Below, piece by piece: positions 1-19,491 of a stretch of 21,677 nt of DNA. The stretch lies in the NCBI GenBank assembly GCA_031372065.1, contig JANMKN010000086.1, positions 1-21,677 of the forward strand, written 5' to 3'. Each line of letters opens with the position of its first letter. The first letter of the stretch is position 1. Under the pieces are notes generated by a model. The model saw only the letters and a list, made by a program, of their open reading frames with translations, searched no databases and was not told the origin of the DNA. The stretch is from Abditibacteriaceae bacterium (lineage in GTDB: Bacteria; Armatimonadota; Abditibacteriia; Abditibacteriales; Abditibacteriaceae). The position numbers and the translations under genes are program-made.

Positions 1-132
1 AACCTCAACTTTCGCACCCATCTCAAGCGATTGCAGCGCAAAACCATTTGCTTTTCCAAATCACTCGAAATGCACCAAGCCGTCATCAAACTATACATCC
101 ATGCCCTCAATTCAAAACAGCATCACTTCTGA
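1..132 (+). CDS. IS1-family transposase (InsB-like), 3' end only; runs off the window start
   Basis: Frame 1 translates NLNFRTHLKRLQRKTICFSKSLEMHQAVIKLYIHALNSKQHHF*, matching the InsB C-terminal motif NLNLR.HL.RL.RK..SFSKS.E.H..VI. The stop lies inside the terminal inverted repeat. Not in the ORF track. Confidence 0.9.
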   Translation, partial: NLNFRTHLKRLQRKTICFSKSLEMHQAVIKLYIHALNSKQHHF

Positions 133-141
133 AACACGACC
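118..141 (+). mobile_element. Right terminal inverted repeat of the IS1-family element
   Basis: CAGCATCACTTCTGAAACACGACC (outer end reads GG, IS1-like); 22/24 identical to the MITE IR at 877-900. Confidence 0.85.
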
Positions 142-403
142 GGATAAAGCGCAGCGTGGCGGCAAGTCTGACAGGGCAAAGCCTTTACACGGTTTTGGTG
201 GCGCCAGTGTTTTGGAGGTTGTTGAAAATTTTCAGGGTGACACTTATCGCGCCGTTTACACGGTGCGTTTGGCTGATGTGGTTTACGTCCTGCATTGCTT
301 TCAAAAGAAAAGCAAGAGCGGCATCAAAACTCCAAAGCAGGATTTAGATTTAATCAAGCAGCGGTTGCGCGAAGCGGAATTATTGCACAAGGAGCAAAAG
401 TGA
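142..403 (+). pseudogene. RelE/ParE-superfamily (Gp49-like/HigB-type) toxin, 5'-truncated by the IS1 insertion
   Basis: DKAQRGGKSDRAKPLHGFGGASVLEVVENFQGDTYRAVYTVRLADVVYVLHCFQKKSKSGIKTPKQDLDLIKQRL is typical of this family. Homology begins right at the IS end and the usual N-terminus is absent. The ATG at 101 is IS-derived. Confidence 0.85.
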
Positions 404-726
404 TGAGCGAGACAAAACATACTGCTGGAAGTGGAAACGTGTTTGCGGACTTGGGTTTGGCAGACGCGGACGAATTGTTTTTTAAATGCGAATTGATGCA
501 CTGCATTTCGCATTTGATCGCCATAGAGAAGTGGACGCAGGCCCAAGCCGCGCAAGAATTAGGCATCACACAACCGCGAGTCTCGCAGATTATGAATGGC
601 CGGGCGACTGGCTTTTCTATAGATATGCTGTTGGGGATTTTGAATCGCTTAGGCTGCGATGTGGAAGTGAAGGTGAGACCTCGCAAATCGACACCCGGCC
701 AAACACGTGCCTTCGTGATTGCATAA
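403..726 (+). CDS. XRE/HTH antitoxin (HigA-like), 107 aa
   Basis: ATG overlaps the toxin TGA (TGATG at 401-405); SGNVFADLG motif and HTH WTQAQAAQELGITQPRVSQIMNG. Confidence 0.9.
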   Translation: MSETKHTAGSGNVFADLGLADADELFFKCELMHCISHLIAIEKWTQAQAAQELGITQPRVSQIMNGRATGFSIDMLLGILNRLGCDVEVKVRPRKSTPGQTRAFVIA

Positions 727-1096: not shown

Positions 1097-4000
1097 CTAA
1101 AGAGTGGTAACAGCCAAACCCTGACTATCAATTGTGAAGTGGAAAAATCGAGCGTGAGCATTGGGCGGGTCATTTTGCAATTCGCGTAGAATCTGGCCGG
1201 CTGTCATTTCATCGCGCGCGATCAATAACATAAAGCCACCTCCGCCAGCACCACACAGCGAATAAGCAGAAGTGTAAGGCTGAACCCGCTGCAAAATCGC
1301 CTCAATTTCGGCATTTGTGCTACTGGGGTCAACGGCCTTTTTCAATTCCCAATACTCCGCGACGCGATCCGCAAAAGCTGCTATGTCATTGGCTTCCAAA
1401 GCCAATTTCGCTTCCATGGCACCTTGTTTCAAGCGATCAATAATCGCCAGCAATGCGGGTTCGCGCGCTAAATAACGCCCCACTACGTTTTGCAAAATAT
1501 TCTTCGCAAGCCGCTTCTGACCGGTGTAATACAACAACAAGCGACGCGATAATAAGTCCGCCGCATTTTCGGCACCAGTGCCAGAGCGTTCAACCCGGCC
1601 CGGCGCGCCAAAGACCGACCATTGCGTCGAAGGCGTTTGACTAATGCCGGGTTCGGTGCGAATCAATTTCACGCCGGCCAGAACGCCGCCGATTTGGTCT
1701 TGCCAACCGCCGCCGGTAGTCATACGTTGTTCCAACAAACTCGTTTGAGTTATCAATTCAGCGTGCGTGAGTTCCTGTCCTAAAACGCGCGTCAGACACG
1801 CCAAAGTAGCCGCGCCTAAAATGCTGCTGGTGCCCATGCCGCTGCCTTTGGGCAAACCGCTGAACAAAGTCAGATCAAGCCCGCCGCCTAAGACATCCAT
1901 CCAATGTTCCAGCGATTGCGGCGCGCTTGAATTTTCGCGGCGCTCCGGCACGATGCCGGATAACACCAAAGCCGCTTTCGCCAGACTGCTCCAATGACCC
2001 AAATCGGGCGTGCCGTTGATTTCTTCGGCGGTGCGGAAAATGGCCTGACTGCCTAAATCAATGCTGGTCAAACGGATACATCTGTCTTTGTTCAGTTTGG
2101 CAACGACTTGAATGGGATACTGGCGATTAATCGTCACGGCAGCATTGAGAACCGTGCCGCCGCGCTCGAAGCAAATCGGCGGCGTATCCGACCAGCCGCC
2201 CGCAAAATCAATGCGTGCTGGCGCTGTGACCCAAACCACTTGATCTTCCAGAATTTCCGCCGGACGTGGCTCATGAGGCAGTTCAATAGCGCTTTCCATG
2301 GCGCGCGAAATCGAATGAAACGCGATGTGGTTGAAGGTTGCCGAACGCAAGGTTGCCGAAAGCAACGACGCATCGCCGGGAGTCGTCTTTTGTTCGATTG
2401 CTTCCGCGATTAGAGCGCCCGCGCGCATAATGCGCGCTTCGGTGAGCAAACGCGTGCCTGTTTCTGCTTTTTCGAATGGCTCCGTTTGGCGTTGCTCGTG
2501 CCAATGCTGAATTTTATCCAGCAAACGTTGATGAATCACTATGTCGTCAAAGCTGTTTAAACGCGCTAAAGCCTCGTCTGCTGGATAATTGTCGTAACGC
2601 AACAAGTCATCAAACAAATGCTCGCCTTCAAAATGCGCGGCCACGTTTTCACGATGGCGCACCAGACGCGCATAATCAAGCTGCGCCAACAATTGCGGCC
2701 AATTAAATCGCTCCTGTCCTTGCCATAATTTCAATAGGGCCGCCGCCGCATTTTGCCGTGATTTTTTGTCGTTTGTTGTGACTCCGACAGCCTCCAAAAG
2801 CAAAGATAATGCTGAATTACCCGCATCGCCAGCCAGCCACAAACGCGCTGTCCATGTCGAATGCTCGCCTTCATCGTCCCACAAAAACGAGGGCGAAATG
2901 CCGGCTTCAAAAAGACGCTCAATGGGCTGATTTAAAAACTGGCACAGCCCCGATTCCGCAGTCGCTTTATTATCATCGTCCACACCAAATAAAACGGGCA
3001 CGGTTTGTGAAAAATCACCATTTTGCACCGGCAAAAAGGTGATTCCGATGCCTGTTGGCAAGCCTGATAGTCCGGTAGGCGGACTTTTCCATTCGGTGAT
3101 GATATTGTCGCCGGATAAAGTGAAATTCTGAGTGGAATCCGCTTTTAAATCACAGCTTTCCAAATAAACAGTGCCCTGCGTCGAAAAGCCGTCCCATGAA
3201 CCGCTGTTGTTAAAAAACACCGATTCGCTGCCACTGGATTTCGCGGCATTGCGCAGCGCCTCCAATAAATCGGGTGTTACACGACAGCCATTTTGAAATC
3301 CGCTTTGGCGACGCGTGCGACTGGGCTGCGTAAAACGCGCTAACAAATCGCGATTGGTGCCCACATGAAAAAACTCGCCATCCGGCACCGCGACAACGTA
3401 AAAAGGAAGCGATGCCACGCGCAATTTTTCGAAAAATTCACCCAACGATTGGCGCGCTTCGGGCGTTTGATTGGCGGGCGCGATGCTTTGCAAATACTCT
3501 TCTCGATTCGTATTGCGCGGCAACGCCAAAGCGATTTCCTGATACAAATCCACCAAACTAACTTTGCCACTTAAAACATCTGCATAAACGCCAGTTCCGC
3601 GTTGGGCCACGCCGTTGTCCCATTGAAAGCCAGCCGCTTCCATCAAAGTCAAAGCCGCATCAGGCGACAAACACAAAACGCCACTATCAATCAAAACGCG
3701 GCCCGATAAATCCAGCGCCGCATGACGTCGCAATTCTTCGACGCCGGGCTTTTGCAAAAAGCCCGTCACTCTGCCGCCTTCGCTGGAGTTGGGCGTGATA
3801 TAAACGCCATGATGGCGCCCCAATTCAGGCGCGGCGGGGAAACCCAAGCCCGTAATGCCATTGCCGCCGGGGATATCCAAAGAAGTCGCATCAAAAGTCA
3901 GCAAAACATCGCCGGAACAAATGACAATCTGCCCTTCGGCAGGACAAGGCAACTGCACAAGACGTTGAAGCAACAAATCAAATAAGGCCGCCGGGAAACG

Positions 4001-4366
4001 ACGCCACGGCGCAGCTTGAGACGGCGTTACATCGCACGGCATCGGCAAAAAAATCTTGCCGAGCGGCGCATAAGCGGGCAAACGGCGCGCGTCACCGCCC
4101 GAATGCGCAATCAGAATACAGCGCCCGGCAAACGGATTAGCGCCTTCTGTTTTGAAGTGGCCTGACAACTCGGCCAAGACCACCAACGTGCTGGTGCCCG
4201 ACCCTACGCGGCGACCTGCCGGATCAGCAATCACTAAATATTCCGTGCGCTCATCCAACAAACCCGACGTGCGCCGCGCATTCAATTGGGCACGATAACC
4301 TTGCGCCTGCGCTTCGTTGGCAGCAGTCAGCACGACGACATCAAAAGCCGGACGTTGATGGAGCAT
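1097..4366 (-). CDS. fkp: Bifunctional L-fucokinase / GDP-L-fucose pyrophosphorylase (Fkp/FKGP-like), ~1089 aa
   Basis: N-terminal nucleotidyltransferase motifs (DPAGRRVGSGTST, HSGGDARRLPAYAPLGKIF, SGDVLL, HGVY, FLQKP, IDSG). C-terminal GHMP kinase motifs (APARIDFAGGWSDTPP, LPKGSGMGTSSIL, TTGGGWQDQIGG, CGAGGGGF). Start taken at ATG 4366 rather than 4444. Confidence 0.88.
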   Translation of the reverse strand: MLHQRPAFDVVVLTAANEAQAQGYRAQLNARRTSGLLDERTEYLVIADPAGRRVGSGTSTLVVLAELSGHFKTEGANPFAGRCILIAHSGGDARRLPAYAPLGKIFLPMPCDVTPSQAAPWRRFPAALFDLLLQRLVQLPCPAEGQIVICSGDVLLTFDATSLDIPGGNGITGLGFPAAPELGRHHGVYITPNSSEGGRVTGFLQKPGVEELRRHAALDLSGRVLIDSGVLCLSPDAALTLMEAAGFQWDNGVAQRGTGVYADVLSGKVSLVDLYQEIALALPRNTNREEYLQSIAPANQTPEARQSLGEFFEKLRVASLPFYVVAVPDGEFFHVGTNRDLLARFTQPSRTRRQSGFQNGCRVTPDLLEALRNAAKSSGSESVFFNNSGSWDGFSTQGTVYLESCDLKADSTQNFTLSGDNIITEWKSPPTGLSGLPTGIGITFLPVQNGDFSQTVPVLFGVDDDNKATAESGLCQFLNQPIERLFEAGISPSFLWDDEGEHSTWTARLWLAGDAGNSALSLLLEAVGVTTNDKKSRQNAAAALLKLWQGQERFNWPQLLAQLDYARLVRHRENVAAHFEGEHLFDDLLRYDNYPADEALARLNSFDDIVIHQRLLDKIQHWHEQRQTEPFEKAETGTRLLTEARIMRAGALIAEAIEQKTTPGDASLLSATLRSATFNHIAFHSISRAMESAIELPHEPRPAEILEDQVVWVTAPARIDFAGGWSDTPPICFERGGTVLNAAVTINRQYPIQVVAKLNKDRCIRLTSIDLGSQAIFRTAEEINGTPDLGHWSSLAKAALVLSGIVPERRENSSAPQSLEHWMDVLGGGLDLTLFSGLPKGSGMGTSSILGAATLACLTRVLGQELTHAELITQTSLLEQRMTTGGGWQDQIGGVLAGVKLIRTEPGISQTPSTQWSVFGAPGRVERSGTGAENAADLLSRRLLLYYTGQKRLAKNILQNVVGRYLAREPALLAIIDRLKQGAMEAKLALEANDIAAFADRVAEYWELKKAVDPSSTNAEIEAILQRVQPYTSAYSLCGAGGGGFMLLIARDEMTAGQILRELQNDPPNAHARFFHFTIDSQGLAVTTL

Positions 4367-4442
4367 GAAATGGAAACACTTTCTCTGACACGATGGAAAT
4401 GGAAAAGCAAATTCAGTTTCGCCTAATGGAACGTGGCAACGC

Positions 4443-4470
4443 AAAGGGCGACCCCAAAGGAGCCGCCCTT
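4443..4470 (-). terminator. Probable intrinsic terminator after the giant peptidase gene
   Basis: Minus strand AAGGGCGGCTCC-TTT-GGGGTCGCCCTT-T: 12-bp GC-rich stem (two G-U pairs), ~20 nt after the stop at 4490; short U tract. Confidence 0.65.
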
Positions 4471-4489: not shown

Positions 4490-7400
4490 CTAATTGGCAG
4501 TCACCGATGAGTCGTCATTGTTGATGGTGCCAATGCCGCGTGCGCGTGCGATGGTCGCATTTTGACCCGCACTGAGCAGAACGAACAAGGTTTCGTCGTT
4601 TTCAACGATGGTGTCACCGTTAATCACCACGCTGATCGTTTTGCTGGTTTGACCGGCTGCAAAAGTCAACAAACCCGTTTTCGCTGCGTAATCGCTCGCA
4701 GACAGCGCCGTGCCATTGGCCGTCGCGTAATTCACACTAACTGCTTGGGCACTGGCCTTCGAAAGCGTGACTGTGAAGGTCAAGTTTTTAGTGCCGGGTG
4801 CCCCGTTAGAGGGCGGATTTCCTTCGGCAATGCTAACATCGTTGATACTCAAGGCTGGAGCGGAGTCATCATTGAGAATGGTGCCCGTCGCTTGCGGTTG
4901 CATAATAGTCGCGTTGGCAGGAGTCGTTAAATTCACCACAAAGGTTTCATCGGCTTCGTTCAGCAAGTCGCCATTAATCAAAACCCGCGCGTAAGCGTAA
5001 ACACTGCCCGCCGAAAAAGCCACTGAGGTAGCAGGAACCGCCACATAATCCTCGCCGGATTTAGCTGTTCCGTTAGCGGTCGCATAATTCACTTTCACGA
5101 CTTGACCGCTGGGTGCTGACAGTTTCAAACGAAACGCCGCCGTGCGTTGGCCACTGTTGCCTTCGCCGATGCGCACAGCATCAATGGAGATCGAAGGCAG
5201 AACATCGTCATTCACAATGGTGCCCACACCGCGCCCGCGTCCAATGGAGCAGTTGACAGGCGAAGACAACACCACAAAGAAGGTTTCATTCGTTTCGGCT
5301 TGCAAATCGCCTTTGACCGGCACGCTGAAAGTCTTGGTGGTTTCGCCCGGCGCAAAGATGATTCGTAGGCCACCGCCGGTGTAATCGGAGGGCGAAAGAG
5401 CCGAACCATTATAAGGAATGGCATTGATCGAGATGGTTTTGTCGCTGGGCCATGACAATTGAACCGTAAAGTTGGCGTTAATGAAGCCGCTATTGCCTTC
5501 TACTACGCTCACATCGTCAAGTGTCACCGCAGGCGTTTTGATCGTCGCTGCCAAAATCGGCGTGGTCGGATCACCAAATAATATCCAAGTGCGCTGCACA
5601 TCACTATCGGTTGAAGTGGCTTTGGCATTCTTGATGGCATCACCCAAGGTGGCTGGTTTTCCGCTGCCTTGTTTGAAGAGTTGACGATGCATTTCTTGGC
5701 TTAAAGCCAGTTGCGATTCTGGATTCGTCATGCCCGACGAGGCCCAAACCGCTGCGCCGCCACCATTAGGCGCTTTGAGTAGCACTTCCGCCAAACCGTC
5801 CAAATTGGGGTCTTGGAAGTAACCATTTAAACACGTCATCGGCAGAATCACCGATAAATTAGCGCTGTTAGTCAAAGCACTGGCGTCTTCGTTCGCCAGC
5901 AAACGCGCGCCCGTCCAAATATCTATCGAGCCGTGACCAAAGAAACTGGCGAGCAGCGGCCCTTGGTTGATGTCTTGAATAAGCTGTGCTTTGACTGTCG
6001 CTGTATCGCCGTCATCCCGCTTCAAAAATTGCTTGGAGACAGTTGGCGGCAGCAAACCGGCGACTGTGGTGCTGGCCGCATTGAAATCAAAGCCGCGCTC
6101 TGTATCCGACACAAAGAGCGCTTTCTTGCCTTCTTTCACCTGAAAGCCCGCATAGCCGACGATCTTATTGATAATAGCGCTGGCTTCGCCTGCCGAGCGA
6201 ACCGGCAAACGGCCCAGCGACATTTCAGCCAAGCCGTTGTCATCAAAATCGGCCAGCCACTCGTCGGAAGCCGTTTCCATAGTGGCCGTATCAATCAAGC
6301 GCGTCGGCACTAAATCGAAATCGCCTTGCCCGCCGTAATTGCGTGGATCAAGACTGCTATCGCCGACCAGCAAGCCAAAACGCGGCGCTTTTTGCCAGCG
6401 GCTTTTGGCGTTTGCCAGAAAATCTTTCAGCGCCTGTGGCGTGTGCGCGCCGCCGCTGAACTCATCGTAAATGTCTTCTACATCCACCACTTGCACAACG
6501 TAGCCTTGCTTGCGACGCAAAGCAGCCAGCGGTTCGACACTGCCCTTCACACTCGCATGGGCGATGATGACTAAATCCGCTGATTTGGCATTATGCCAAT
6601 CGGAAGGCTGATTCGCGGCCACCGTTGGAGAGTCGAATTGCCCTTTAGCAAAGGCGATGATTCTGGAAGAAGTGGCGCTGGCCTTGAAAGTCAAGCTGCG
6701 ATCACTGCTGCTGGTTTGCACTTGGCCTTGAATCTCGATGGGATTAGAAGGATCGCTGACATCTACCAAGCGCAAGGGCGCCGTGCCCAGACTAAAGCCT
6801 GCAATGCGCACCGTATCGCCGCTCTTGGCCGAGAAGATCAGGCGATCATTGACTGCCCGATAAGTGCGCGGATAAGTCAGGCGCAGCGAATCCAGCAAAC
6901 TCGCATCGCTGCCCCCCGAAGAAGTCAGCGTTACGCTATTGCTGCCTGCAATCAGCGCCGCAAGCGGAACCGTCAAGAGCGCGATTTTATGAGCGCGGTC
7001 AGTGAAGTTCACCGTGCCAAGCAGCTTGCCATTGAATTGCACTTGCACTTGGTGTGCGCCGCTGGAAACGCCTTGCAGAGCCACTTCCAATCGAACAATG
7101 CCGCTGGAAGCCAAGTTTTGCACCGGCAAAGTTTGCGTGACGGCTTGGGTGTAAATCGCCGGGCCAAAGAAGTTTTCGGCCTCGCCATTGAGCAACGAAC
7201 TGTAGTAAATGCTGCGCGGTTTGCTTTCTACCACACAGGGGAAACTGGCAGCGAAAGTGGCGCCCGGCGCGCCGCTTGATTGCGAAGCAATGCGCGCCCT
7301 GCCGCTGCCGGTGACTAACCAGTAAATATGCGTGTCGGTAGTCGGCGTATCGAACGCGACGCCATAAAATTCAAAGTAGCTGCTGCCAACTGAAACGGGC

Positions 7401-10400
7401 ACAGGCAGACCATCAGCGTAAAGTTGCAGATTGTTGAAATCCGTCACATCCAAACCCGCCGCCGTTAATTGCGACTTCGTGACGCGATACCAACCCGTTT
7501 TGCGCACCGCAATCTTGACCGCTTGCTGCCCAGCCAAACTCCATTGTTGCCCCCGATTGCCCGCTGGAATAGAAGTCAGCACGAAGGGCATTTCAACCGA
7601 AGTAACCGTGCTGGCAGTGACGGCTTTGGTAAATGGGCCTGTGGCGGCCTGATTTGCAGGTGAGGCGCCCAATAACGGCGAACTTTGCAGCGCCGCCTTG
7701 CCATTGGCCGCCGAAACTTTAATTGGGCCGTGCCATGTGGAAGTGCCGTTCAAATCCACATCTTCCAACCAATACTGCGAATTCACATCGCCACTCTCAT
7801 CCGGCCACGCATACGAGCCGCCAGCGACAAGATGTGTCCCGTTACCCACGCGCAAAGCTGAACCCGCAATCAACGATGAGTTTAAGCGCACCTTTTTGCC
7901 GTTTTGCACGCGATAAACGTTGAAGCCCAAATTGTCCACTTCATCGCCCGTTTCCCATTTGAGCCACAAGCCATCTTTGTAATGGGTGGCTGTAAAGGAA
8001 ACCAAATCCACCGCAGTGCTGTTGGCATCAAACGGAATGCTGGTTAAAACCACATCATTGCCGTCGCCGCCAACGTAGCTGATTTGGAAGGTGTAGTTCG
8101 TGTTCGAAAAGGGCAAGTTGAAGGTGGCGCCTTCTTTAATGCCATTGAAGGTGCCAACTACAGCATCAGACAAATTATTATCAATAAGGGTAAACGTCTG
8201 CACGCCATCAGCAGCGGGCGCGAAGCCCAGCGTGAAACCGAGATTCGGATTATTCAGCGTGACTGTGCCGTTGACTACTACCTGATCATATTCAGTGCCC
8301 GCCGTCGCGCCGTTAATCTCAATTTGCAGTTTGGAGCCGGAATTAAGCGTGTAATTTCCGGCCACCGTCTGAATTCCGGGACTATTTCCCGGCGAGTGAA
8401 CGGTGCTACTGGCAAAGGTCGCCGTCCCCTGAATCGTGCCGCTGCCACCCAAAGTCCCCGCGTTCACTATTGTGCTGCCTTGATGAGTGTTGGCACCGTT
8501 CAACAGCAATGTGCCGTTTCCAATTTTCGTAATTCCGTGAAAGGAGGAATTAATATTGGAAATCACACCACCATAAGTGAGCGTTGTCCCAGACGCCACA
8601 TCAAAAGTGGCGCGGCCTGTGGTGTCAATAGCCACACTTCGATTGGCATCAAGCGTCATGGTTGCTGTAGTTTGAAGTGTGCCGCTGCTAATAGTTAAAG
8701 CCTGCGCTGTTGCCACACCGGGCGCTGTTCCAAGATTGTTATCTGCCGAAATGCTTAAAACGCCGCCGGTGATAGTTGTCTTGCCAGAATAGGTATTTGT
8801 ATTGGTTAAAATCGTGGTGCCGCCGATTTGCCTAACCAAACCCGTGCCGCCAATGGCGTTGCCAACTGTAATTGTGTCGCTGCGGTTAAAGCTCAAAGCT
8901 GCATTGTTGGTGACAGCACCCGAACCTAAAGTGCCGGTAGTTCCTGCATTGCCGACTTGCAAAGTGCCTGTACTGACCGTTGTTGTGTCGTAACTATTTG
9001 TTCCAGCTAAGATGGTGGTTCCTATTCCGGCTTGTGTTAAGGAACCGGTGCCGCTAATATCGTTCGACACAGTCAGCGAGTTGGTGCGATTGAAGCTCAA
9101 CGTAGCATTGTTAGTAACAGCGCCCGAACCTAAAGTCCCGGTAATGCCAGCGTTGCCAATTTGCAGTGTGCCCGCGCTGATGCTTGTCGCGACATAGCTG
9201 TTGGTGGCGATCAAAATGGTGGTGCCACTTCCAGCTTGAGTCAGAGTGCCCGTGCCGCTGATTTCGTTTCCAACCGTCAACGAGTTAGTGCGGTTAAAGC
9301 TTAACGTCGCATTATCAATCACAACACCAGCCGCCAACGTGCCGCTCGTGCCGCCATTGCCAATTTGAAAAATACCCGCAGAAATAGTCGTCCCACCGCT
9401 GTAGGTGTTCGCACCCGCAAGTATCATCGTGCCGTTGCCTGTCTTCGTGATACTTCCGCTCGCTGTAAATCCGGCGTCAAATTCAGTTGTAGCGTTATCA
9501 ATCTGAAATGTCCTCGCACCAGTGCCAATTGATGCAGACGTGGTATTGCTGAAGGTCAGATTGCCTGTGCCGCCCGTGGTATTGCCAAAAGCGTAGGTTG
9601 CGGTCGATCCCGCAAAAGTTCCAAAGGCATTAGACAGGGTGCGGGCTGTGGCATCTGCGCTTTGGATTCTCGTGGTATCCGAAGCGGTTGTATTGCTCAT
9701 CGTAAACGAGCCAGTGCCCAACGCTGAGTTATTACCAACCGCCAATGTTCCCCGGTTAAGCGTTGTGCCGCCTGTGTAAGTATTCGTTCCTGAGAGTGTT
9801 TGCGTTCCTGTTCCTGTTTTAATCAATGCCACAATGCCGGTGCCGCCGCTATTCGTGTTGGCTATAATGCCGCCGAAGCTACCACCGGTGGCATTGTTAT
9901 TACCGACCGTCAAAGTTGAGGTATTACTGTTGACGCTGTTATAAACGGCGTTGCCAGCCACAGATGTGCCGCCGAGTTGCCCAACACCTTGATTGACACC
10001 GTTCAAATCCAGCGCGCCGCCTGTATTGATCGTGAGATTGTTGTTAACCGAACCGATGGTGCTGGTTGCGCCGCTCATCTGAATCGGGCCGCCGCCGATT
10101 GTGGTTCCACCCGTATATGTGTTCGCACCACTAAGGATAAGCGTGCCACTACCACTTTTTGTGAGACCGATATTGTTATTGTTTGTCCCAATGCCACCGA
10201 TAATACCACCGAACGTATTCGTGGTGGAATTATTAACGACCAACGCTGAAGCCGTTGCACTGTTGCCTACAATGCTGTAACCGCCAGTGTTTAAGGAAGC
10301 AACACCCACAGCTACGCCGCCTATGGTTTGGCTAATACCATTAAGTTTTAAAGTCACATTTTGGTTAAACGTGCCTGTTGGTGTTCCGGCTGGCGTGCCG

Positions 10401-11923
10401 CCGTAAGTCACAGTAGTTCCAGTGGGGAGCGCGTTGGCTACGGCTAACTCCACTTGCATGGGACTGCCCGTTGATGAACCGGATGTCAGGATTGTGTTCT
10501 GACTGCCTGTGCCATAAGTATTTGCGGCGCTGAACTTGAATAAGGGTGTGCCTGTGCTGCTATTTTGGTTAAAAAGCGTCAACGAGCCTGCACCTGAAAT
10601 AACTCCTCTGAAGTCAATGGGGCTGGTTTGACCGACCGGATCAATGCGAATCGTCGTATCAGAGGCGAGATTGATGGTGCCCGTTAATCCTGTGCTTGCA
10701 TTGCCAAATCCGCTGTTGAAAAAGTTAAGCGCGCCGTTGCCACCAATTCCGCTGCCATTAAGCGTAAAGTTGTTGGGAATGCTTGGAACTCCGCCAGCGT
10801 GATCCTGAATCGTCAATCGCGAACCAGTAGCTACGGAAACGGCTCCTGTGCCAAGCGAGTTGCCTGTGGCGCTTTTAGCGACCAGTTCACCTGCCACTAT
10901 AGTAGTGCCTCCCGTATAGGTGTTGTTCGTCGTGTTCCCTGCATTACCTAATGTCCAAGTCCCGGAGCCGTCTTTAACGATACCGTAAGTAGCTTGAAGC
11001 GGAATTGTCCCCGTGATGGAGCCATTTCCCACACCTAAAAGGTTGAGTTGACGAGTCGTAATAGAGCCACTAAGAGTAAGAGTTCCAGCGTCAGAACGGA
11101 TTGACACCTGACCACCACCGGAGCCGCTGGTCAAATTAGAAGATAAAGAGTTGCTTCCACTTAAGTTAACTATGTGAGGTGAGGCGTAAGTTCCAACTGA
11201 ATTGCGAGAGGCATTAAGGTTAAGGGCTGTCGTCACGGCAATGTTTCCCGCACTCCCATCCAATTCAAGGCGTGCCAGATCACCATTCCCACCAGAACCC
11301 ACCGTGACGGTTCCAGTTCCTAATGCGTTGGAGTGCGAAATTCGCAGAATGTTGGTTGCAGTAAGATTTCCTACAATCGAAGTCGTGTTGCTTCGCGTGC
11401 TGTTGTTACCAGAGATGATTAATAAGCAGGTGACGACACTGGCGCTGGCGGTTCCGACAGTCGTCGTGCCAGAGTAGGTGTTCGCGCCGGAGAGTGTCAA
11501 AGTGCCGCCCGCTCCGTTCATGGTGAGAGATCCTGCTCCGCCAATAATCAGCGAAACGGTGCTGGTGCCGGAGATATGGCTGGCCGTCAGGCCAGTAGTC
11601 AAGCTAACCGAGTTCCCAGCAAGCGTGTAACCACCCGCTGAAATCGTAATCGAGTTGAAGACTGTGCCGGCGGCGAAGTCATTGGTGTTGGAAAGGTTAG
11701 CGGTGCCAACATTGCTGAACACTAAATCATCACCGGCAACAGGCGCCCCGTTCGTCCAGTTACCGATGTTGGTCCAGTTCGCGTTAGTGTTTCCCGTCCA
11801 GACACGGCTGGTCGCATTCGCCGAACCCGCAAACGCGAATAGCAAACCAAACAGGCACAGCGCGGCGAGGCTGGGCCGAATAGGATGCGGCATACGACGC
11901 AGTTTCGTTAAGGGTTTCAACAT
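4490..11923 (-). CDS. Giant secreted protein (2477 aa): signal peptide + autotransporter-associated beta-strand (PATR) passenger + C25 (gingipain-family) cysteine peptidase module + 3 Calx-beta domains
   Basis: Sec signal (LAALCLFGLLFAFAGSANA). About 10 G(T)L.L.G.NTY.G.TT repeats (~8040-11800). AVDLVSFTA...WETGDEVDNLGFNVYR linker. C25 motifs VEDIYDEFSGG, LLVGD, LGRLPV, FFGHGS (His 5933-5935), MTCLNGYF (Cys 5831-5833), LFGDP. Three EGNSG...GTIxNDD Calx-beta units (~4500-5530). Confidence 0.9.
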   Translation of the reverse strand: MLKPLTKLRRMPHPIRPSLAALCLFGLLFAFAGSANATSRVWTGNTNANWTNIGNWTNGAPVAGDDLVFSNVGTANLSNTNDFAAGTVFNSITISAGGYTLAGNSVSLTTGLTASHISGTSTVSLIIGGAGSLTMNGAGGTLTLSGANTYSGTTTVGTASASVVTCLLIISGNNSTRSNTTSIVGNLTATNILRISHSNALGTGTVTVGSGGNGDLARLELDGSAGNIAVTTALNLNASRNSVGTYASPHIVNLSGSNSLSSNLTSGSGGGQVSIRSDAGTLTLSGSITTRQLNLLGVGNGSITGTIPLQATYGIVKDGSGTWTLGNAGNTTNNTYTGGTTIVAGELVAKSATGNSLGTGAVSVATGSRLTIQDHAGGVPSIPNNFTLNGSGIGGNGALNFFNSGFGNASTGLTGTINLASDTTIRIDPVGQTSPIDFRGVISGAGSLTLFNQNSSTGTPLFKFSAANTYGTGSQNTILTSGSSTGSPMQVELAVANALPTGTTVTYGGTPAGTPTGTFNQNVTLKLNGISQTIGGVAVGVASLNTGGYSIVGNSATASALVVNNSTTNTFGGIIGGIGTNNNNIGLTKSGSGTLILSGANTYTGGTTIGGGPIQMSGATSTIGSVNNNLTINTGGALDLNGVNQGVGQLGGTSVAGNAVYNSVNSNTSTLTVGNNNATGGSFGGIIANTNSGGTGIVALIKTGTGTQTLSGTNTYTGGTTLNRGTLAVGNNSALGTGSFTMSNTTASDTTRIQSADATARTLSNAFGTFAGSTATYAFGNTTGGTGNLTFSNTTSASIGTGARTFQIDNATTEFDAGFTASGSITKTGNGTMILAGANTYSGGTTISAGIFQIGNGGTSGTLAAGVVIDNATLSFNRTNSLTVGNEISGTGTLTQAGSGTTILIATNSYVATSISAGTLQIGNAGITGTLGSGAVTNNATLSFNRTNSLTVSNDISGTGSLTQAGIGTTILAGTNSYDTTTVSTGTLQVGNAGTTGTLGSGAVTNNAALSFNRSDTITVGNAIGGTGLVRQIGGTTILTNTNTYSGKTTITGGVLSISADNNLGTAPGVATAQALTISSGTLQTTATMTLDANRSVAIDTTGRATFDVASGTTLTYGGVISNINSSFHGITKIGNGTLLLNGANTHQGSTIVNAGTLGGSGTIQGTATFASSTVHSPGNSPGIQTVAGNYTLNSGSKLQIEINGATAGTEYDQVVVNGTVTLNNPNLGFTLGFAPAADGVQTFTLIDNNLSDAVVGTFNGIKEGATFNLPFSNTNYTFQISYVGGDGNDVVLTSIPFDANSTAVDLVSFTATHYKDGLWLKWETGDEVDNLGFNVYRVQNGKKVRLNSSLIAGSALRVGNGTHLVAGGSYAWPDESGDVNSQYWLEDVDLNGTSTWHGPIKVSAANGKAALQSSPLLGASPANQAATGPFTKAVTASTVTSVEMPFVLTSIPAGNRGQQWSLAGQQAVKIAVRKTGWYRVTKSQLTAAGLDVTDFNNLQLYADGLPVPVSVGSSYFEFYGVAFDTPTTDTHIYWLVTGSGRARIASQSSGAPGATFAASFPCVVESKPRSIYYSSLLNGEAENFFGPAIYTQAVTQTLPVQNLASSGIVRLEVALQGVSSGAHQVQVQFNGKLLGTVNFTDRAHKIALLTVPLAALIAGSNSVTLTSSGGSDASLLDSLRLTYPRTYRAVNDRLIFSAKSGDTVRIAGFSLGTAPLRLVDVSDPSNPIEIQGQVQTSSSDRSLTFKASATSSRIIAFAKGQFDSPTVAANQPSDWHNAKSADLVIIAHASVKGSVEPLAALRRKQGYVVQVVDVEDIYDEFSGGAHTPQALKDFLANAKSRWQKAPRFGLLVGDSSLDPRNYGGQGDFDLVPTRLIDTATMETASDEWLADFDDNGLAEMSLGRLPVRSAGEASAIINKIVGYAGFQVKEGKKALFVSDTERGFDFNAASTTVAGLLPPTVSKQFLKRDDGDTATVKAQLIQDINQGPLLASFFGHGSIDIWTGARLLANEDASALTNSANLSVILPMTCLNGYFQDPNLDGLAEVLLKAPNGGGAAVWASSGMTNPESQLALSQEMHRQLFKQGSGKPATLGDAIKNAKATSTDSDVQRTWILFGDPTTPILAATIKTPAVTLDDVSVVEGNSGFINANFTVQLSWPSDKTISINAIPYNGSALSPSDYTGGGLRIIFAPGETTKTFSVPVKGDLQAETNETFFVVLSSPVNCSIGRGRGVGTIVNDDVLPSISIDAVRIGEGNSGQRTAAFRLKLSAPSGQVVKVNYATANGTAKSGEDYVAVPATSVAFSAGSVYAYARVLINGDLLNEADETFVVNLTTPANATIMQPQATGTILNDDSAPALSINDVSIAEGNPPSNGAPGTKNLTFTVTLSKASAQAVSVNYATANGTALSASDYAAKTGLLTFAAGQTSKTISVVINGDTIVENDETLFVLLSAGQNATIARARGIGTINNDDSSVTAN
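8820..9430 (-). repeat. Three tandem 204-bp (68-aa) repeats inside the passenger domain
   Basis: LSFNR anchor recurs at 8882, 9086 and 9290 (period 204); unit NATLSFNRTNSLTVGNEISGTGTLTQAGSGTTIL...GTLGSGAVTN. Confidence 0.85.
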
Positions 11924-11957: not shown

Positions 11958-12665
11958 TTAAGGATTGGGTGGTGCAGGAGTGGTATCTTCGCTGGGGCCG
12001 CCGATGCGACGGGCGTTGAAATAAGCGTCTACGAACAAGTCATGCGCCGCGCTCAGGCCGCGCAGACTCAGAATTAGGTCGTCCATGTCGGCTAAAATGC
12101 CATCCAAGACGCGAAAACGTGGGCGCAACGCGGTGGTTTTCGCTTTGCGCCCACTGCGAGCGGCCACAGGAGCGCCAATCACATCGCCGTAATCGTCAAC
12201 CAAGTCGAGAAAAGCGCCCACTCTGGCCGTCGTGACGCCAAAATGCGGCGCCAAAGGCGGCGTGGTTTCCGTTAGCGCCTCCTGTGCTGCCGTGTGCAAA
12301 GCCGTGGCTTTGCTCAATAAGACGTTTTCCGCCAACTGCGTCCACTCGGTGATGGTCAAGTCCCAAACGGCGGCTTCGGCCAATTGCTCATGCTGCCGAT
12401 AATACAAGCGCAAGGCGCGTCCCAACGGATGCGCGGCGGCTTCGAGTGCGGTTTCCGCCAGATTCTGCTGCTGCGTGATGCCCGTCAACGTTCCCGATTG
12501 CGCGTTGCCAAAAGCGCCTAAATCCGTCGCGCCCGTCTCGAAATCGGCGACACGCTGCGTCAAATACGGCGGCTGGTCGAGCCACAACGCTTCATTGGCC
12601 GGTTCGCGGAGCAGCGTATGAACGCCACTATACATCCTCAATTTGCGTGCAAATTCGTCAATCAT
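11958..12665 (-). CDS. Hypothetical protein, 235 aa, probably all-alpha, with Pro-rich tail
   Basis: Long Ala/Leu-rich ORF with GGAGG RBS at 12674-12678. Ends ...MDDLILSLRG...FVDAYFNARRIGG...PAPPNP. No catalytic motif recognised. Confidence 0.85.
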   Translation of the reverse strand: MIDEFARKLRMYSGVHTLLREPANEALWLDQPPYLTQRVADFETGATDLGAFGNAQSGTLTGITQQQNLAETALEAAAHPLGRALRLYYRQHEQLAEAAVWDLTITEWTQLAENVLLSKATALHTAAQEALTETTPPLAPHFGVTTARVGAFLDLVDDYGDVIGAPVAARSGRKAKTTALRPRFRVLDGILADMDDLILSLRGLSAAHDLFVDAYFNARRIGGPSEDTTPAPPNP

Positions 12666-12709
12666 AATCTAAACCTCCGTTAAATCCCCTATTTTTATGC
12701 TTAACGGGC

Positions 12710-12982
12710 CAATAATTGACTCGAAGAGTTCAATTATTGGCCCGAAGAAACCGATAATTGGCCCGAAGACCTCAATAATTGAGGCAAAGCGGCCAATAAT
12801 TGGCTCGAAGTGGCCAATAATTCACCCGAAGAGTTCAATAATTGGCACCGAGGGTTCAATAATTGACCCGAAGTCCTCAATAATTCACCCGAAGAGTCCA
12901 ATAATTGGCACCGAGGGTTCAATAATTGGCTCGAAGAGAGCGATAATTGACCCGAAGTCCTCAATAATTGGCCCGAAGGCGT
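12710..12982. repeat. Tandem array of 13 exact 21-bp units; consensus CAATAATTG(G/A)CCCGAAGnnnT, with palindromic core CAAT-A-ATTG
   Basis: Unit starts 12710, 12731, 12752, 12773, 12794, 12815, 12836, 12857, 12878, 12899, 12920, 12941, 12962; degenerate 14th at 12983; no indels. Confidence 0.95.
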
Positions 12983-13045
12983 CAATGTTTGGCTATAAAT
13001 TGTTGTTTTCATTGTTGCGGTAGATAACGATTTAAAGTCTTGTTT

Positions 13046-13522
13046 CTACATACAAGCGCCATTGTCACAAATTCCGGGAGATTGGCATTGTCCCCCACTT
13101 GTGCAACTGGCCCCGCTGGGCAACAGGGACGCCGCTTGTGCTGCGGTGGGCGCCACGATGCTGGTGACAACCGCCGCTGCTGCCACGGCGCCCGCTCTAC
13201 GAAACAAATCACGCCGTGAAAGCGACGCGGCTACCGGGCGGCTAACCGTGGATTCCAGCAAGTCGGCGCGACGCAGTTGCTCTAAGGCAAAAGCCACCAC
13301 ATCCACCGTCACTGGAGTTTTAAGCGCGGTAGAGGCACGCGCGGCCACTTCATCAAGCGAAGTTTTGCCGTCGCAAAACTTCCACACCACGGCGGCAGTG
13401 TGACCCAAACAATGCGCTTTATTGCATTTTAGGTCGTAGATTAAAACTTCGTCTGACAACTCTTCTACGACTAATTCCGTCTGGCGGGCACGGGGCACAA
13501 AATCCTCTGTGACATTACTCAT
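13046..13522 (-). CDS. PqqD/RRE-domain protein fused to a Tat-like leader and a 28-aa Cys-rich C-terminal peptide (158 aa)
   Basis: PqqD pattern PRAR..LVVEELSDEVLIYDLKCNKAHCLGHTAAVVWKFCDGKTSLDEVA...ALEQLRRADLL, then SRRDLFRRAGAVAAAAVVTSIVAPTAAQA|ASLLPSGASCTSGGQCQSPGICDNGACM. AAGGAAG RBS before ATG 13522. Confidence 0.88.
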   Translation of the reverse strand: MSNVTEDFVPRARQTELVVEELSDEVLIYDLKCNKAHCLGHTAAVVWKFCDGKTSLDEVAARASTALKTPVTVDVVAFALEQLRRADLLESTVSRPVAASLSRRDLFRRAGAVAAAAVVTSIVAPTAAQAASLLPSGASCTSGGQCQSPGICDNGACM

Positions 13523-13570
13523 AACAGCTTCCTTAGCGATATATTCTGACAAAAAATGTTTAACGTTGCA

Positions 13571-16057: not shown

Positions 16058-16582
16058 TTATTCTTCAAAGCTCTCTCGCAGTGTTTTGTAGGAGAGGAAA
16101 AGCCGCATTGGGTTCTCCGAGGCGGTTATCATATCAAAGCGTTCATAGAAGGCTTTAGCTTCTTCGTCTTTGGCATCCACCATAAAAAAGCGGACGGGTG
16201 CTGCGCCGGATTGCATGACAGCCCAAGTGCGCCGTGTGGCATCCATAAACAGATCGTGCCCCATGCCATGCCCTTGCCAATTCCGATCAACGGCAAAGCG
16301 CGCCATGAGCATAGCGGGAATGGAAGACGGCATACCGCGCCCCAGTTTTTTAGGCGCTTCCGATTGCAAAACCGAAGCGTGTGTAAGTGTGTAATAGCCG
16401 ACCACAACCACGCCGCTTGTCGCTACATAAGTGCGCGACAGCATGGCGTTTTGCTTATCGAAGGCGTGCCGTTTGAGGAACTCGTTTAAGGGCGCTTTGC
16501 CACAATCGAAAGCCGTCGTATCATGTTCGGCAGCGAGAGGCTGCGGTGGATTGACCGGCTCAATTGGATTAATTTTAGACAT
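16058..16582 (-). CDS. GNAT acetyltransferase toxin (TacT/AtaT-like), 174 aa
   Basis: HDTTAFDCGKAPLNEFLK, VGYYTL, IPAMLMARFAVDRNWQGHGMG (acetyl-CoA motif), VDAKDEEAKAFYERF. ATG 16582 overlaps the antitoxin end. Confidence 0.92.
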   Translation of the reverse strand: MSKINPIEPVNPPQPLAAEHDTTAFDCGKAPLNEFLKRHAFDKQNAMLSRTYVATSGVVVVGYYTLTHASVLQSEAPKKLGRGMPSSIPAMLMARFAVDRNWQGHGMGHDLFMDATRRTWAVMQSGAAPVRFFMVDAKDEEAKAFYERFDMITASENPMRLFLSYKTLRESFEE

Positions 16583-16862
16583 CCCAGATAGGTTTCTTGG
16601 CAAGAGCCGCTTTCAAGCGCGGTGCTGGTGCGGGGGGGGCATCCATGACACGGCAAAGCTGTTCGTATTCTTCGGGCGAAACGATAATTTGCGTTTCTTC
16701 TTTGATAACGCGCTCGGCTTCATTGAGTGACACTTGCAGCACAAATTGGCTGACATTCATGTGGCGCGCTTTGGCAGCTTGTGCCAGCACGTTCTTTTGA
16801 TTGGGATTGGCGCGAATGGAAAGGCGCTCTTCTTTTGGGTTTTTAGCAGCTAAACGGGGCAT
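16575..16862 (-). CDS. DUF1778 RHH antitoxin (TacA/AtaR-like), 95 aa
   Basis: KEERLSIR...LAQAA...VSQFVL...EAERVI...MDAPPAPAPRLKAAL; AAGGAG RBS. Confidence 0.92.
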   Translation of the reverse strand: MPRLAAKNPKEERLSIRANPNQKNVLAQAAKARHMNVSQFVLQVSLNEAERVIKEETQIIVSPEEYEQLCRVMDAPPAPAPRLKAALAKKPIWDV

Positions 16863-17060: not shown

Positions 17061-17310
17061 ATGCCCATTCTACCGCAAGTTTTGTTCTTACTGTTGCGCT
17101 CGGGTGCCATTTCTGGCCCGCAACACAAGTTTGTCTTTCACAAGTTTGTCTTTCACCTGATGCAGCTCTGGCTGGGTTTGCGCGGACGCTTCAATGTCAC
17201 CAACCTGAGCCGCTATAGCCCCTACCACGAGCAAACCTTTCGCCGTCACTTTGAGCGTTCCTGCCCGTGGGGCACCTTCAACGCGCATCTGTTCACACAA
17301 GCTCTGCCAT
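17061..17310 (+). pseudogene. N-terminal fragment of a DDE transposase (IS701/IS4-like)
   Basis: ISGPQHKF...LGLRGRFNVTNLSRYSPYHEQTFRRHFERSCPWGTFN resembles the N-terminus of that group as I recall it. Similarity ends before the catalytic domain. Carries a 15-bp tandem duplication (17124-17153). Confidence 0.6.
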
Positions 17311-17449
17311 GTCTTGCAACGATTCACGCAACGTGCGATAGCCTTCCTGTCGCCCGCCAATGCGGTATTCTTTGCCTAAATTTTCAACGGAAATTGCGAC
17401 GTCGCTCATTGCTTTTTATTTTTGATTCACCACTGCGAACGCGGAGAAA

Positions 17450-17698
17450 TTAACGCGTGTTTAACCACTTCTTCACATCGGAAATCGTCGTAATGCTAAA
17501 CAGCGCCTCGCCCAGCGATTCCAGTTCATCAGCAGAAAGTTGGCTCACTTGCTTTTCAAGATTTAGCGGCAACTCGCCCACCCGCAAATGGAGCAGGCGC
17601 AAGACAAAAGAAAGGGCCTCTGCCTGACGACCTTCTTGAAGGCCTTGCTGACGGCCTTCTTCTAACCCTTCGCGTTTCCAACTTGTCATCAGTTCCAT
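17450..17698 (-). CDS. Candidate nested in-frame small protein (RpnS-like antitoxin), 82 aa
   Basis: GGAGG (17712-17708) lies 9 nt upstream of an in-frame ATG at 17698 (MELMTSWKREG...), just before the EG repeats. Confidence 0.55.
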   Translation of the reverse strand: MELMTSWKREGLEEGRQQGLQEGRQAEALSFVLRLLHLRVGELPLNLEKQVSQLSADELESLGEALFSITTISDVKKWLNTR

Positions 17699-18382
17699 GA
17701 CTTTTTCCCTCCGGGGAGGTGGCAATTCCTCTAAACCAGTCTGATACTCTTGTTCCTCCGCAGCATTCAGTGCCAAATAGGTATCCACAAAACCTGATAT
17801 AAGTCTCTCGCGGGCTGCATCTAATTGCAATGTTGTCAACAAGCGCAAGCACTCCAGCTTAACCCGCGCCCGGTCTGGCGGCGCGATTTTCATTTTGGAC
17901 ATCAAGGCACTGGCGACCGGGTTAGAGTGCCTCACATAATCGCGCCATGATAAGCGATTCAATTGAATAGCGTGATAGCGAAAATCTAAAATCAGGTGAT
18001 CCTGCAACTTTACCTGAAAGCGATCCGGCTCGGCGCGGTAGGGAGCGTCATAAGAAAAAATCACCACTGGGTAAATTGGCACATTATGCTTTTCGTGCAA
18101 ACGCGCAAAGTAGCGAAACATTCGTTTGCCAAACTCCGCCTGCGGCGCTGCCTGATGTTCGACATGAATCAGGAAAAAAGCCTCTTCTCCCCTCAACCGC
18201 GCTTGCACAACCAAGTCTGCTTCGCGGGGCTCACCCGCCGTGACATCAGTGAATACTTCCTTATCGAGAAATGTGATGCTATCACGGTCAAGATTCTCAC
18301 TTACTTCGGGCAGAAACAGTTCCACAAACTCCCCGAAGAAAGTGGTGATCAATTCCTTGAAAAGCCGGTCATGGTCTGTCAT
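17450..18382 (-). CDS. Rpn-family PD-(D/E)XK nuclease (YhgA/YadD-like) with C-terminal DUF4351, 310 aa
   Basis: HDRLFKELI, READLVV...IHVEHQ, RMFRYF, EG(L/R)xxG repeats, LRLLHLRVGELP...LESLGEALF...WL. Confidence 0.9.
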   Translation of the reverse strand: MTDHDRLFKELITTFFGEFVELFLPEVSENLDRDSITFLDKEVFTDVTAGEPREADLVVQARLRGEEAFFLIHVEHQAAPQAEFGKRMFRYFARLHEKHNVPIYPVVIFSYDAPYRAEPDRFQVKLQDHLILDFRYHAIQLNRLSWRDYVRHSNPVASALMSKMKIAPPDRARVKLECLRLLTTLQLDAARERLISGFVDTYLALNAAEEQEYQTGLEELPPPRREKVMELMTSWKREGLEEGRQQGLQEGRQAEALSFVLRLLHLRVGELPLNLEKQVSQLSADELESLGEALFSITTISDVKKWLNTR

Positions 18383-18437: not shown

Positions 18438-19052
18438 CTACACCACATCGGCAAAGGTCTTTTCCATACGCCGGAAGTAAAAAGCGCCACTAATCAACAA
18501 CATAATCGCCGCCAGCGACGATGCAGCAATAATTGGCCCCGGCGCCGTATCAGTGCCCAGTAGCGCCCAGCGAAAGCCTTCGACTACGCCCACCATCGGA
18601 TTCAAGCCGTAGAGCGTGCGCCACAGTTGTTCCAGCAAGCTGGAAGGATAGGCAATGGGCGTAGCAAACATCCACACCTGCGTAATAAAGGGCACCACAT
18701 AGCGCACGTCGCGAAATTGCACGTTCAACGCCGAAAGCCACTAACCCACGCCCAACGATGTGATTAAAGCCAACAGCAAAAACAATGGCAACCAGATGAT
18801 GTTTATCGTTGGCAGAATGCCATAATAGACCATCATGCCCAGCAACACCACGAACGCTAAAGCAAAATCAATAACGCCCGATAGCACCGTCGAAATTGGA
18901 ATCGTCAGGCGCGGAAAATAAACTTTGGTAATCAGGTTCGCACTACCCACCAAACTGTTGGAGGAATTGCCTAAGCCCGTAGCGAAAAACGTCCACGGCA
19001 CTAAAGCGGCGTAACTGAAAATCGGATACGGAATGCCATCGGAGGGAATTTT
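18438..19052 (-). pseudogene. ABC-2 polysaccharide export permease (Wzm-like), 5'-truncated with an internal stop
   Basis: KIPSDGIPYPIFSYAALVPWTFF...NLITKVYFPR...LGVG*WLSALNVQFRDVRYVVPF...NPMVGVVEGFRWALLG...FRRMEKTFADVV; in-frame TAG at 18741-18743; N-terminus missing. Confidence 0.9.
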
Positions 19053-19491
19053 CGTAGAAACCAGCACACAGTGTGCGCGGGCCATGGCAGAGGGCCGCTA
19101 CTCCACCGCTACTTTACATTGTCATACAGCGCACAGTTTACGAGGCTTTTTCAAGTGCGATAGCAAGTGCGATAATAGGCAATAGACCGCGTTGCGTCCT
19201 GCATCGTCAGCATCGCCGTCTCCTATCCATCTGCCCGAATCTCACGAGCCTTTGGGGGCTGCTTGCAGCGGGTCTAAAATTGGGTTGTTGGGGCTTGTTG
19301 CTGCATCCACACCCACAAAACCTACAAATTTACGCCTTATAGAGAAAACATAAGACCTTTGGGGGCAAAACTAATTCTCCCTGAACGAAGAATTCCCTGG
19401 CTTTAAACGTGGGAAGTGTCAAAAATATCTGCTTTATTGCTGTGAGTTTATTGTTGCGGGCTGACCAGCAAAACTATTAAACTATCAAAAT

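Follow-up and report, generated by a model that had tools for sequence, protein, structure and literature searches.

An RRE domain fused to an internal twin-arginine-like leader and a cysteine-rich tail beside an HprK-related kinase gene in Abditibacteriaceae

The closest known system to the gene described here is that of the linear polyphosphorylated peptides (LPP) found in Bacillota, with the components LppA/K/B/S/D/N (PMC13381572; Popov et al. 2026). As described in the available sections of that paper, LPP combines an RRE, an HprK-like kinase and an NTP transferase in a capsule-locus context, with no macrolactam cyclase. The RRE is a discrete protein and the precursor a separate one, with a conserved leader, a variable C-terminus and a signal-peptidase-type cleavage; a SipW-like peptidase and an MsbA-like exporter complete the system. 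The leader carries a YxxPxV motif; the Ser that becomes (poly)phosphorylated, close to the start of the core, is located 15 residues after the Pro (P-13 to S3). In LppB-LppA crystals, this Pro is fixed by N33 of LppB, the last residue of the strand with which the leader pairs; the N33A replacement almost abolishes leader binding, and LppK did not phosphorylate the S3T variant. A second group comprises phosphorylated or phosphoglycosylated lasso peptides such as paeninodin and pseudomycoidin, for which the accessible text of PMC8498205 indicates a B1-type RRE fold, an HPr-kinase homologue and a nucleotidyltransferase, the latter adding a nucleotide or a sugar to the phosphate in pseudomycoidin.

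Other systems resemble parts of the gene. Tat substrates show twin arginines, a moderately hydrophobic h-region, an AxA motif and signal peptidase I cleavage (PMC9360617, available excerpts), all of which the family leader described below matches. TorA/TorD and DmsA/DmsD add a signal-binding protein, and the signal is not necessarily N-terminal, an internal Tat signal being known in the Streptomyces Rieske protein (excerpts of PMC13186574 and PMC9360617). Bufferins, in the portion of PMC11626156 available, are Cys-containing small-protein RiPPs with a general export signal cut by signal peptidase and an RRE-like partner. Finally, the HPr-rel-A families (TIGR04352/TIGR04353) place an HprK-related kinase beside a PqqD-family protein.

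The gene that we describe (Table 1) lies in a 21,677-nt stretch of an Abditibacteriaceae genome, the whole of which is called the window. The order there, all in minus-strand direction, is NTP_transf_5, HprK-related kinase, precursor, 21-bp repeats, a 235-aa ORF, the C25 protein and fucokinase/fucose pyrophosphorylase. RRE and precursor are not separate genes, since one ORF encodes both, here and across homologues. Translation agrees with the sequence-only reading in placing SRRDLF at 13219-13202 and AQA at 13141-13133, followed by 28 residues. An internal restart at the signal was rejected, as there is no Met between residues 2 and 157 (ATG starts), and promoter and terminator scans stayed at chance level.

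Table 1. Coordinates of the precursor gene, its parts and its neighbours in the window
Feature	Position	Strand	Basis or remark
Fused precursor gene, RRE + internal twin-arginine leader + Cys-rich tail	13046..13522	-	158 aa; single copy in genome
AAGGA, ribosome-binding-like, upstream of precursor ATG at 13522	13530..13534	-	Sequence
RRE/PqqD domain, residues 9-89	13256..13498	-	Pfam, model, alignment; strand 3 = K35-L39; Gly40 in place of family Asn (95%)
Twin-arginine-like motif SRRDLF, S102-F107	13202..13219	-	Leu where Tat signals usually have Phe
Hydrophobic region, candidate RRE recognition segment, A114-A124 (positions -17 to -7)	13151..13183	-	V119-I122 = strand in model
c-region P125(-6)-T-A-A128-Q-A130, predicted signal peptidase I site	13133..13150	-	Predicted cut after A130; AQA = A128-A130
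28-aa tail, four Cys (C140, C146, C152, C157)	13049..13132	-	Cystine-knot-like minus Cys I and IV
Ser132 (+2), candidate phospho-acceptor	13127..13129	-	Putative; same register as LPP Ser3
HprK-related kinase, 289 aa	13571..14440	-	TIGR04352 E 1e-17, under cut-off; alignment; Walker A + SDEY motifs intact
NTP_transf_5 nucleotidyltransferase, 378 aa	14502..15638	-	PF14907 E 1.4e-27
2477-aa secreted protein: PATR repeats, Peptidase_C25 (gingipain/PorU-like) at 5558-6571, Calx-beta repeats	4490..11923	-	Recurrent family neighbour
21-bp direct-repeat array, ~16 units, between precursor and 235-aa ORF (11958-12665)	12668..13035	.

The likeness to LPP covers several features: RRE, HprK-like kinase, NTP transferase and capsule-locus context recur, no cyclase is seen, and a conserved leader precedes a variable C-terminus, with a signal-peptidase-type cleavage that is here predicted. 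Several differences stand against membership. The RRE is fused in cis; the recognition motif begins with an aliphatic residue, with no Tyr among the residues listed at that position, and this gene lacks the Pro; the leader combines a twin-arginine n-region with a hydrophobic h-region and with Pro(-6)/AxA; neither a SipW-like peptidase nor an MsbA-like exporter occurs in the window or, as judged by an S26 profile and an ABC-ATPase motif, in 40 related loci; the cargo is disulfide-rich or a long protein; and the hosts are Armatimonadota and Acidobacteriota genomes. By analogy, the fusion would work like LPP, but it is not an LPP member. The lasso systems differ in that, as PMC8498205 describes them, the modified Ser is C-terminal and the precursor is separate from the RRE. 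A lasso peptide reading was rejected: the lasso B2 peptidase PF13471 was not found in the genome (93.9% complete) and no Asn_synthase (cyclase) match appears among the scanned neighbours. PQQ biosynthesis was rejected likewise, with no pqq neighbours in the Pfam scan. Tat chaperones are not covalently placed in front of the signal, as the RRE fold is here, and in this family the Phe usual in Tat signals is rare; in the Rieske protein, as far as the excerpts describe it, the signal follows membrane helices, whereas here it follows a soluble domain. Bufferins differ, in the text available, by an N-terminal Sec signal, MNIO chemistry and an RRE on a separate protein. Matches to the HPr-rel-A models reach 64.1/200 and 15.3/35 bits, far under the cut-offs, and the 73-position PqqD model covers the RRE part only.

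We favour, at a probability of about 0.55, the reading that the gene encodes a precursor with its own recognition element, working like the tailoring module of LPP and phosphorylated lasso peptides. The architecture of RRE, leader and tail is real, conserved and apparently undescribed. Indeed, no description of an RRE-twin-arginine-cargo fusion was found in the full-text literature, in which few subscription journals are covered, nor in the available parts of two RRE-Finder papers and of the LPP paper. These proteins may nevertheless be included in the RRE data sets of PMC12710340, whose accessible text reports that 21% of PF05402 proteins are larger than the discrete size and carry no other annotation.

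The family is large. A word-indexed search retrieved 143 relatives among 799 candidates, an Abditibacteriaceae-labelled homologue is 58% identical to the precursor, and a profile search gave 2,567 clusters at 50% identity (E<=1e-30). The full-length fusion occurs in 19 of 201 genomes of the host-phylum sample, with RRE-only matches in 8 more, and fusion matches occur in 63 of the 121 genomes of the class of genome G201, with up to six copies each. For the 40-locus set, the locus with the highest score was taken from each of 40 of these 63 genomes, with ~8 kb on each side. Searching for stand-alone leader-plus-tail proteins of 35-112 aa gave 2 matches, both apparently truncated fusions, and at least one match was obtained for longer fusion forms.

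Conservation was assessed on 301 of 304 sequences anchored by HMM columns, two long-cargo proteins and one sequence cut by a contig end having been dropped for want of an aligned anchor; the sequences used are top search matches and so biased to conservation, with at least one duplicate among them. In this set, the twin arginines are conserved in 296, Pro(-6) in 298 and AxA-type small residues at -3/-1 in 284 of the 301 homologues, far above chance, with Ala at -1 in 275 and an RR-to-cut distance of 28-32 residues in 296. The hydrophobic region follows the pattern [VIL]xxPx[VI]xS[IL]xA, with V/I/L/A at -17, P(-14) in 285, V/I(-12) in 299, S(-10) in 265 (Thr in a further 20) and A(-7) in 272 of 301. 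The sequence-only reading had anticipated conserved RR and AxA motifs ahead of a hypervariable tail; this holds across homologues, and the lack of conservation that it had named as grounds for giving up the idea is not what we find.

On the structure model, the N-terminal domain is a lasso-type RRE/PqqD fold. Residues 28-89 match PF05402 in Pfam at 23.8 bits, against a cut-off of 23.4. The AlphaFold2 model (85-row alignment, mean pLDDT 85.5) predicts three strands (17-21, 26-30, 35-39) followed by three helices (41-48, 56-67, 73-85) in a winged-helix arrangement and, beyond the RRE, a helix at 103-117 and a strand at 119-122. The top structural match is the lasso RRE in PDB 6jx3 (VIA-align Z 8.7, rmsd 2.7, 83 aligned), and the TbiB1 lasso RRE is recovered at Z 8.4-8.7 by VIA-align and E 6e-4 by Foldseek. 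A PDB sequence search with the precursor gave nothing below E 0.05, with PqqD, small disulfide peptides and the AioB N-terminus as weak matches only, and in the ESM Atlas its clusters are unnamed or called just 'PqqD family protein'. The PqqD fold noticed from the letters is thus confirmed by Pfam, AlphaFold2 and the lasso RRE matches, but not its extent of ~95 residues from the start, as the domain spans residues ~9-89. DNA-binding domains of ToxR (Z 5.5) and CadC (Z 4.9) also came up in the fold search, and the domain order would suit a ToxR/CadC-like, uncleaved single-pass membrane protein, with a cytoplasmic winged helix, an anchor and a periplasmic disulfide-rich sensor. We regard such a sensor as very unlikely: the lasso RREs score higher, the would-be anchor shows co-variation with the RRE cleft, the hydrophobic region, short at a median of 17 residues in the family, ends in Pro(-6)/AxA, and the tails are hypervariable.

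The hydrophobic segment of the leader is likely to bind the RRE as an extra strand beside strand 3, as suggested by co-variation and the structure model. The family pattern at -17 to -12 matches the class of RRE recognition sequences given as W/Y/LxxP-L/I in the available part of PMC12710340. In a mean-field coupling analysis (303 rows, Neff 257, 7503 pairs), N40-P(-14), H37-S(-10) and Y29-V(-12) rank 2, 3 and 7 among all pairs, and 4, 2 and 7 when nine rows close to the query are removed. Their z values of 7.2, 6.2 and 4.3 compare with top inter-domain values of 3.3-4.1 in five shuffles, which do not preserve relatedness. Two expected contacts rank low, L39-V(-12) at 945 and K35-V(-8) at 6681, and the pair F49-F107, at rank 4, is without explanation. 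Of the rows, 281 have both Asn40 and Pro(-14), 10 from three separate clades have neither, and 9 lack one of the two. This pair is the counterpart of the contact between LppB N33 and the leader Pro in LPP. The model can also be superposed, as far as its residue 126, on NisB chain 4wd9_A, where the matched positions reach number 1020; this chain has 1006 residues, versus 996 for a NisB chain offset by three, so its residues beyond NisB are probably the bound NisA leader. The earlier proposal that the RRE holds its own leader in cis is therefore supported by co-variation and the model, though the co-variation would fit a swapped dimer equally well.

The precursor of the window is itself one of the double losses, having Gly40 and no Leu-Pro, and thus lacks both the Asn and the Pro, the residues that weigh most in LppB binding. 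The sequence-only reading had missed the lasso/LPP-type recognition motif within the hydrophobic stretch, the absence of the family Leu-Pro from this gene and the four-Cys version of a cystine-knot-like pattern in the tail.

Beyond the RRE, the family shows twin arginines, then an h-region and a signal peptidase I site, which is the arrangement of Tat substrates. A TatFind-like rule is satisfied by 276 of 301 members. The consensus is nevertheless atypical: this gene shows neither RRxFLK nor a TIGR01409 match above cut-off (12.4 bits vs 16.7), TIGR01409 matches 9 of 24 segments and passes its cut-off in 2, and Phe is found at RR+2 in 9 of 301 family members vs 18 of 21 N-terminal RR candidates of the same genome. 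TatC, two S26 peptidases and VKOR are present in the genome. In the 40 loci, SpI, the S26 profile and the ABC-ATPase motif each gave 0 matches; S26 genes, three in all, are found at a distance of 0.3-6 kb from the fusions of L045, L059 and L066. Export of the tail appears likely, and that it proceeds via Tat is fairly probable.

The same atypical consensus, together with the helical state of residues 103-117 in the model, would also suit twin arginines that are no Tat signal but part of an amphipathic helix docking the kinase, binding a phosphate chain or read by C25, the tail leaving the cell otherwise. C25 genes lie within 2.5 kb of the fusion in 16 of 40 loci and adjoin it in 4 of the 6 fusion genomes having C25, and the C25 domain encoded in the window carries its His and Cys motifs, 34 residues apart. 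Against this, C25 was not found in 13 of 19 fusion genomes, no ABC exporter motif occurs in the 40 loci, and the twin arginines are kept in G033, G059 and G197, where neither a close kinase orthologue nor C25 was found. Moreover, the spacing, Pro(-6) and AxA suit a cleavable Tat signal, and we consider the non-Tat explanation quite improbable.

The tails point in the same direction as export. An even number of Cys is found in 286 of 294 Cys-bearing tails, and paired cysteines imply an oxidising destination. The six-Cys knot framework C-C-CC-C-C occurs in 116 of 301 family tails. In inhibitor cystine knots, the Cys are connected I-IV, II-V and III-VI. The tail here, with four Cys and without I and IV, falls short of the six-Cys set. 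Among 156 short tails, 81 keep Cys I and IV, six more also keep both with the CC pair present, 19 lose both together and 50 are outside the pattern. Other tails are Lys-rich, Pro-rich, Gly-rich, made of GxT repeats, intein-like (below cut-off) or proteins of 250-330 aa. Because some relatives carry such a protein as tail, the RRE and leader together behave as a portable N-terminal module. The layout of RRE, Tat-like signal and core in cis that the sequence-only reading had described thus stands, but for the last part a folded mini-protein with disulfide bonds is a better description than a classical RiPP core. Of the 40 loci, 7 contain MauE-thioredoxin fusions.

Cys is found at +3 in 153 of 300 homologues, which would permit a Tat lipoprotein lipidated at the Cys after AAS/AAT. 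This is hardly tenable: the +3 Cys disappears along with Cys IV (19 tails), as expected of a disulfide partner, the residue at -3 before that Cys is Ala and not the lipobox Leu, and the gene of the window was rejected as a lipoprotein since it has Leu at +3 and no Cys to lipidate.

Some cargoes show features of their own. In L044, L045 and L047, the RRE-leader is fused to a G-rich repeat cargo of 260-330 aa with a conserved C-terminal domain, and next to it comes, each time, a conserved gene of ~415 aa that has an HELxH motif but no Pfam match; long cargo falls, in the ESM Atlas, into unnamed clusters and, at 0.90, a Peptidase_G2 cluster. Collagen-like GxT tails are found on fusions beside a GT7-type glycosyltransferase and a kinase (L046 5861-9427; L002 6528-7139), and in L002 a 2OG-Fe(II) oxygenase is located between fusion and kinase.

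The precursor, with its adjacent kinase and nucleotidyltransferase, looks like a self-contained modify-then-secrete peptide system. In line with the modifying enzymes that the sequence-only reading had invoked, a kinase and a nucleotidyltransferase accompany the precursor: of the 40 loci, 35 contain NTP_transf_5 and 34 the kinase, 31 of them within 600 bp on the same strand, while 18 have C25 and 11 Wzc. Genes for O-antigen ligase, polysaccharide export and glycosyltransferases also recur near the fusions in these loci. In the phylum sample, a kinase orthologue is present in 16 of 201 genomes and the fusion in 15 of these 16, although kin are not independent. A profile of the kinase found no solved relative in the PDB. 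Four of the 19 fusion genomes, and G203 with its six copies, gave no close kinase orthologue, G166 being cut by a contig end; the long-cargo genomes G033, G059 and G197, like G203, give only weak partial kinase matches or none. NTP_transf_5 genes are found elsewhere in G033, G059 and G197. By analogy with LPP, the precursor is probably a substrate of the kinase.

Position +2 is Ser or Thr in 272 of 300 homologues, versus 19% across the remaining tail positions, and lies 15 residues after P(-14), the register of the LPP Ser. Ser132 would thus be the analogous phosphorylation site, an assignment that we hold tentatively, with some doubt, because Thr occupies +2 in 103 of 300 homologues and Asn in 16. 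Asn is found in 7 of 45 proteins of the 40 loci, several adjoining a kinase; given this and the rejection of Thr by LppK, the S/T/N preference is perhaps structural or one of the peptidase.

The occurrence of Asn beside kinases would equally suit a portable export module and nothing more, in which the RRE would be a tethered, TorD-like signal-peptide chaperone, while kinase and nucleotidyltransferase act on other targets, for example C25/PEP-CTERM surface proteins or the polysaccharide pathway. One family has a PEP-CTERM-like gene between kinase and fusion, and an exosortase is nearby in two loci. The diversity of the cargo (Lys-rich, Pro-rich, GxT-repeat, Gly-rich and 260-330-aa tails) agrees with such a module, as do the long-cargo copies of G033, G059 and G197, in which RR, Leu-Pro and AxA are retained although these genomes gave no close orthologue of the kinase. 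These kinase-less copies are, however, two residues shorter in register and have S/T(+2) in 2 of 4, a small number from related genomes. As the kinase orthologue is nearly confined to fusion genomes, mostly adjacent and on the same strand, and S/T(+2) falls in the LPP register, this explanation seems unlikely.

For the preferred reading, a precursor tailored as in LPP, we propose the following sequence of events. The N-terminal RRE would fold in the cytoplasm, grip the leader and present the precursor to the adjacent HprK-like kinase, which would phosphorylate it, and the NTP_transf_5 enzyme would add a nucleotide or sugar to the phosphate. The leader, once freed from the cleft, could engage TatBC through its twin arginines as an internal signal, the RRE staying cytoplasmic; a housekeeping signal peptidase I would then cut after AQA, and the tail would form two disulfides outside, with a presumed role at the capsule or the surface of the cell. 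Since a segment paired with the RRE as a strand is not free to insert into the membrane as a signal, the RRE could control when export happens; such gating is possible but doubtful. The most extended version makes the RRE and leader a portable 'modify, then export' tag, in which one stretch switches from RRE-bound strand to Tat signal and the tethered RRE is a proofreading chaperone; the new N-terminus of any cargo, in most cases a bacterial cystine-knot peptide, would be phosphorylated or phosphoglycosylated, and the cargo would be exposed on the capsule or surface layer or attached to it, C25 perhaps serving as sorting enzyme. Taken as a whole, we judge this version somewhat improbable.

If the preferred reading is true, thousands of small 'PqqD family proteins' in Acidobacteriota and Armatimonadota genomes would gain a defined role, and RiPP leader recognition and Tat proofreading would be united in one 158-aa protein. 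It also makes testable the product and purpose of the HprK-like kinase/NTP_transf_5 pairs in capsule loci. Three genes would suffice for a test in a laboratory host, since a single gene encodes substrate, RRE and export signal. The tails themselves would represent a sizeable natural collection of disulfide-rich mini-proteins from bacteria.

The C25 gene of the window is the only one in the genome. In L037 the precursor gene and the C25 gene are immediate neighbours, and the repeat array and 235-aa ORF between them here are probably an insertion. The ORF has no Pfam match and a GC content of 0.59 vs 0.52-0.53, and the array is read through as a 92-aa ORF on the minus strand and a 108-aa ORF on the plus strand. 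C25 genes are also found near loci with a discrete RRE and a kinase (L137-L139).

Other genes of the window deserve mention. A bifunctional fucokinase/fucose-1-phosphate guanylyltransferase is encoded at 1097-4444, and a sugar-donor link is possible. In the relative G046, its homologue is located near NTP_transf_5 (L156), and another copy of the fusion is found beside two GDP-mannose dehydratases (L038). After a remnant of an ABC-2 (Wzm-like) permease with in-frame stops (18438-19085) come a gene of Rpn/YhgA-like type (17450-18382) and what may be a transposase fragment (17061-17453). A TacA-like antitoxin with a GNAT partner occupies 16058-16862, and a small gene pair at the left end of the window (2-726) reads like a RelE/Gp49-type toxin with an HTH antitoxin. 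Elsewhere in the genome are a second, discrete PqqD gene (G000:C210:3697-4122) and a piece of a second NTP_transf_5 gene (C323:5462-5773).

Two loci show related genes in separate form. In L140 (6882-11553, G037), an 83-aa ORF with RR, YxxPxI and AWA adjoins a radical SAM-SPASM gene, a discrete RRE, a kinase and Wzc; judged from its sequence, it appears to be a split analogue of the fusion, seen once. In L068 (5369-13783, G167), a short WxxP-type precursor is found with a kinase, an S24/S26-like peptidase, a discrete RRE, NTP_transf_5 and a PMT_2 glycosyltransferase, which, by its predicted gene content, is an LPP-like cassette outside Bacillota.
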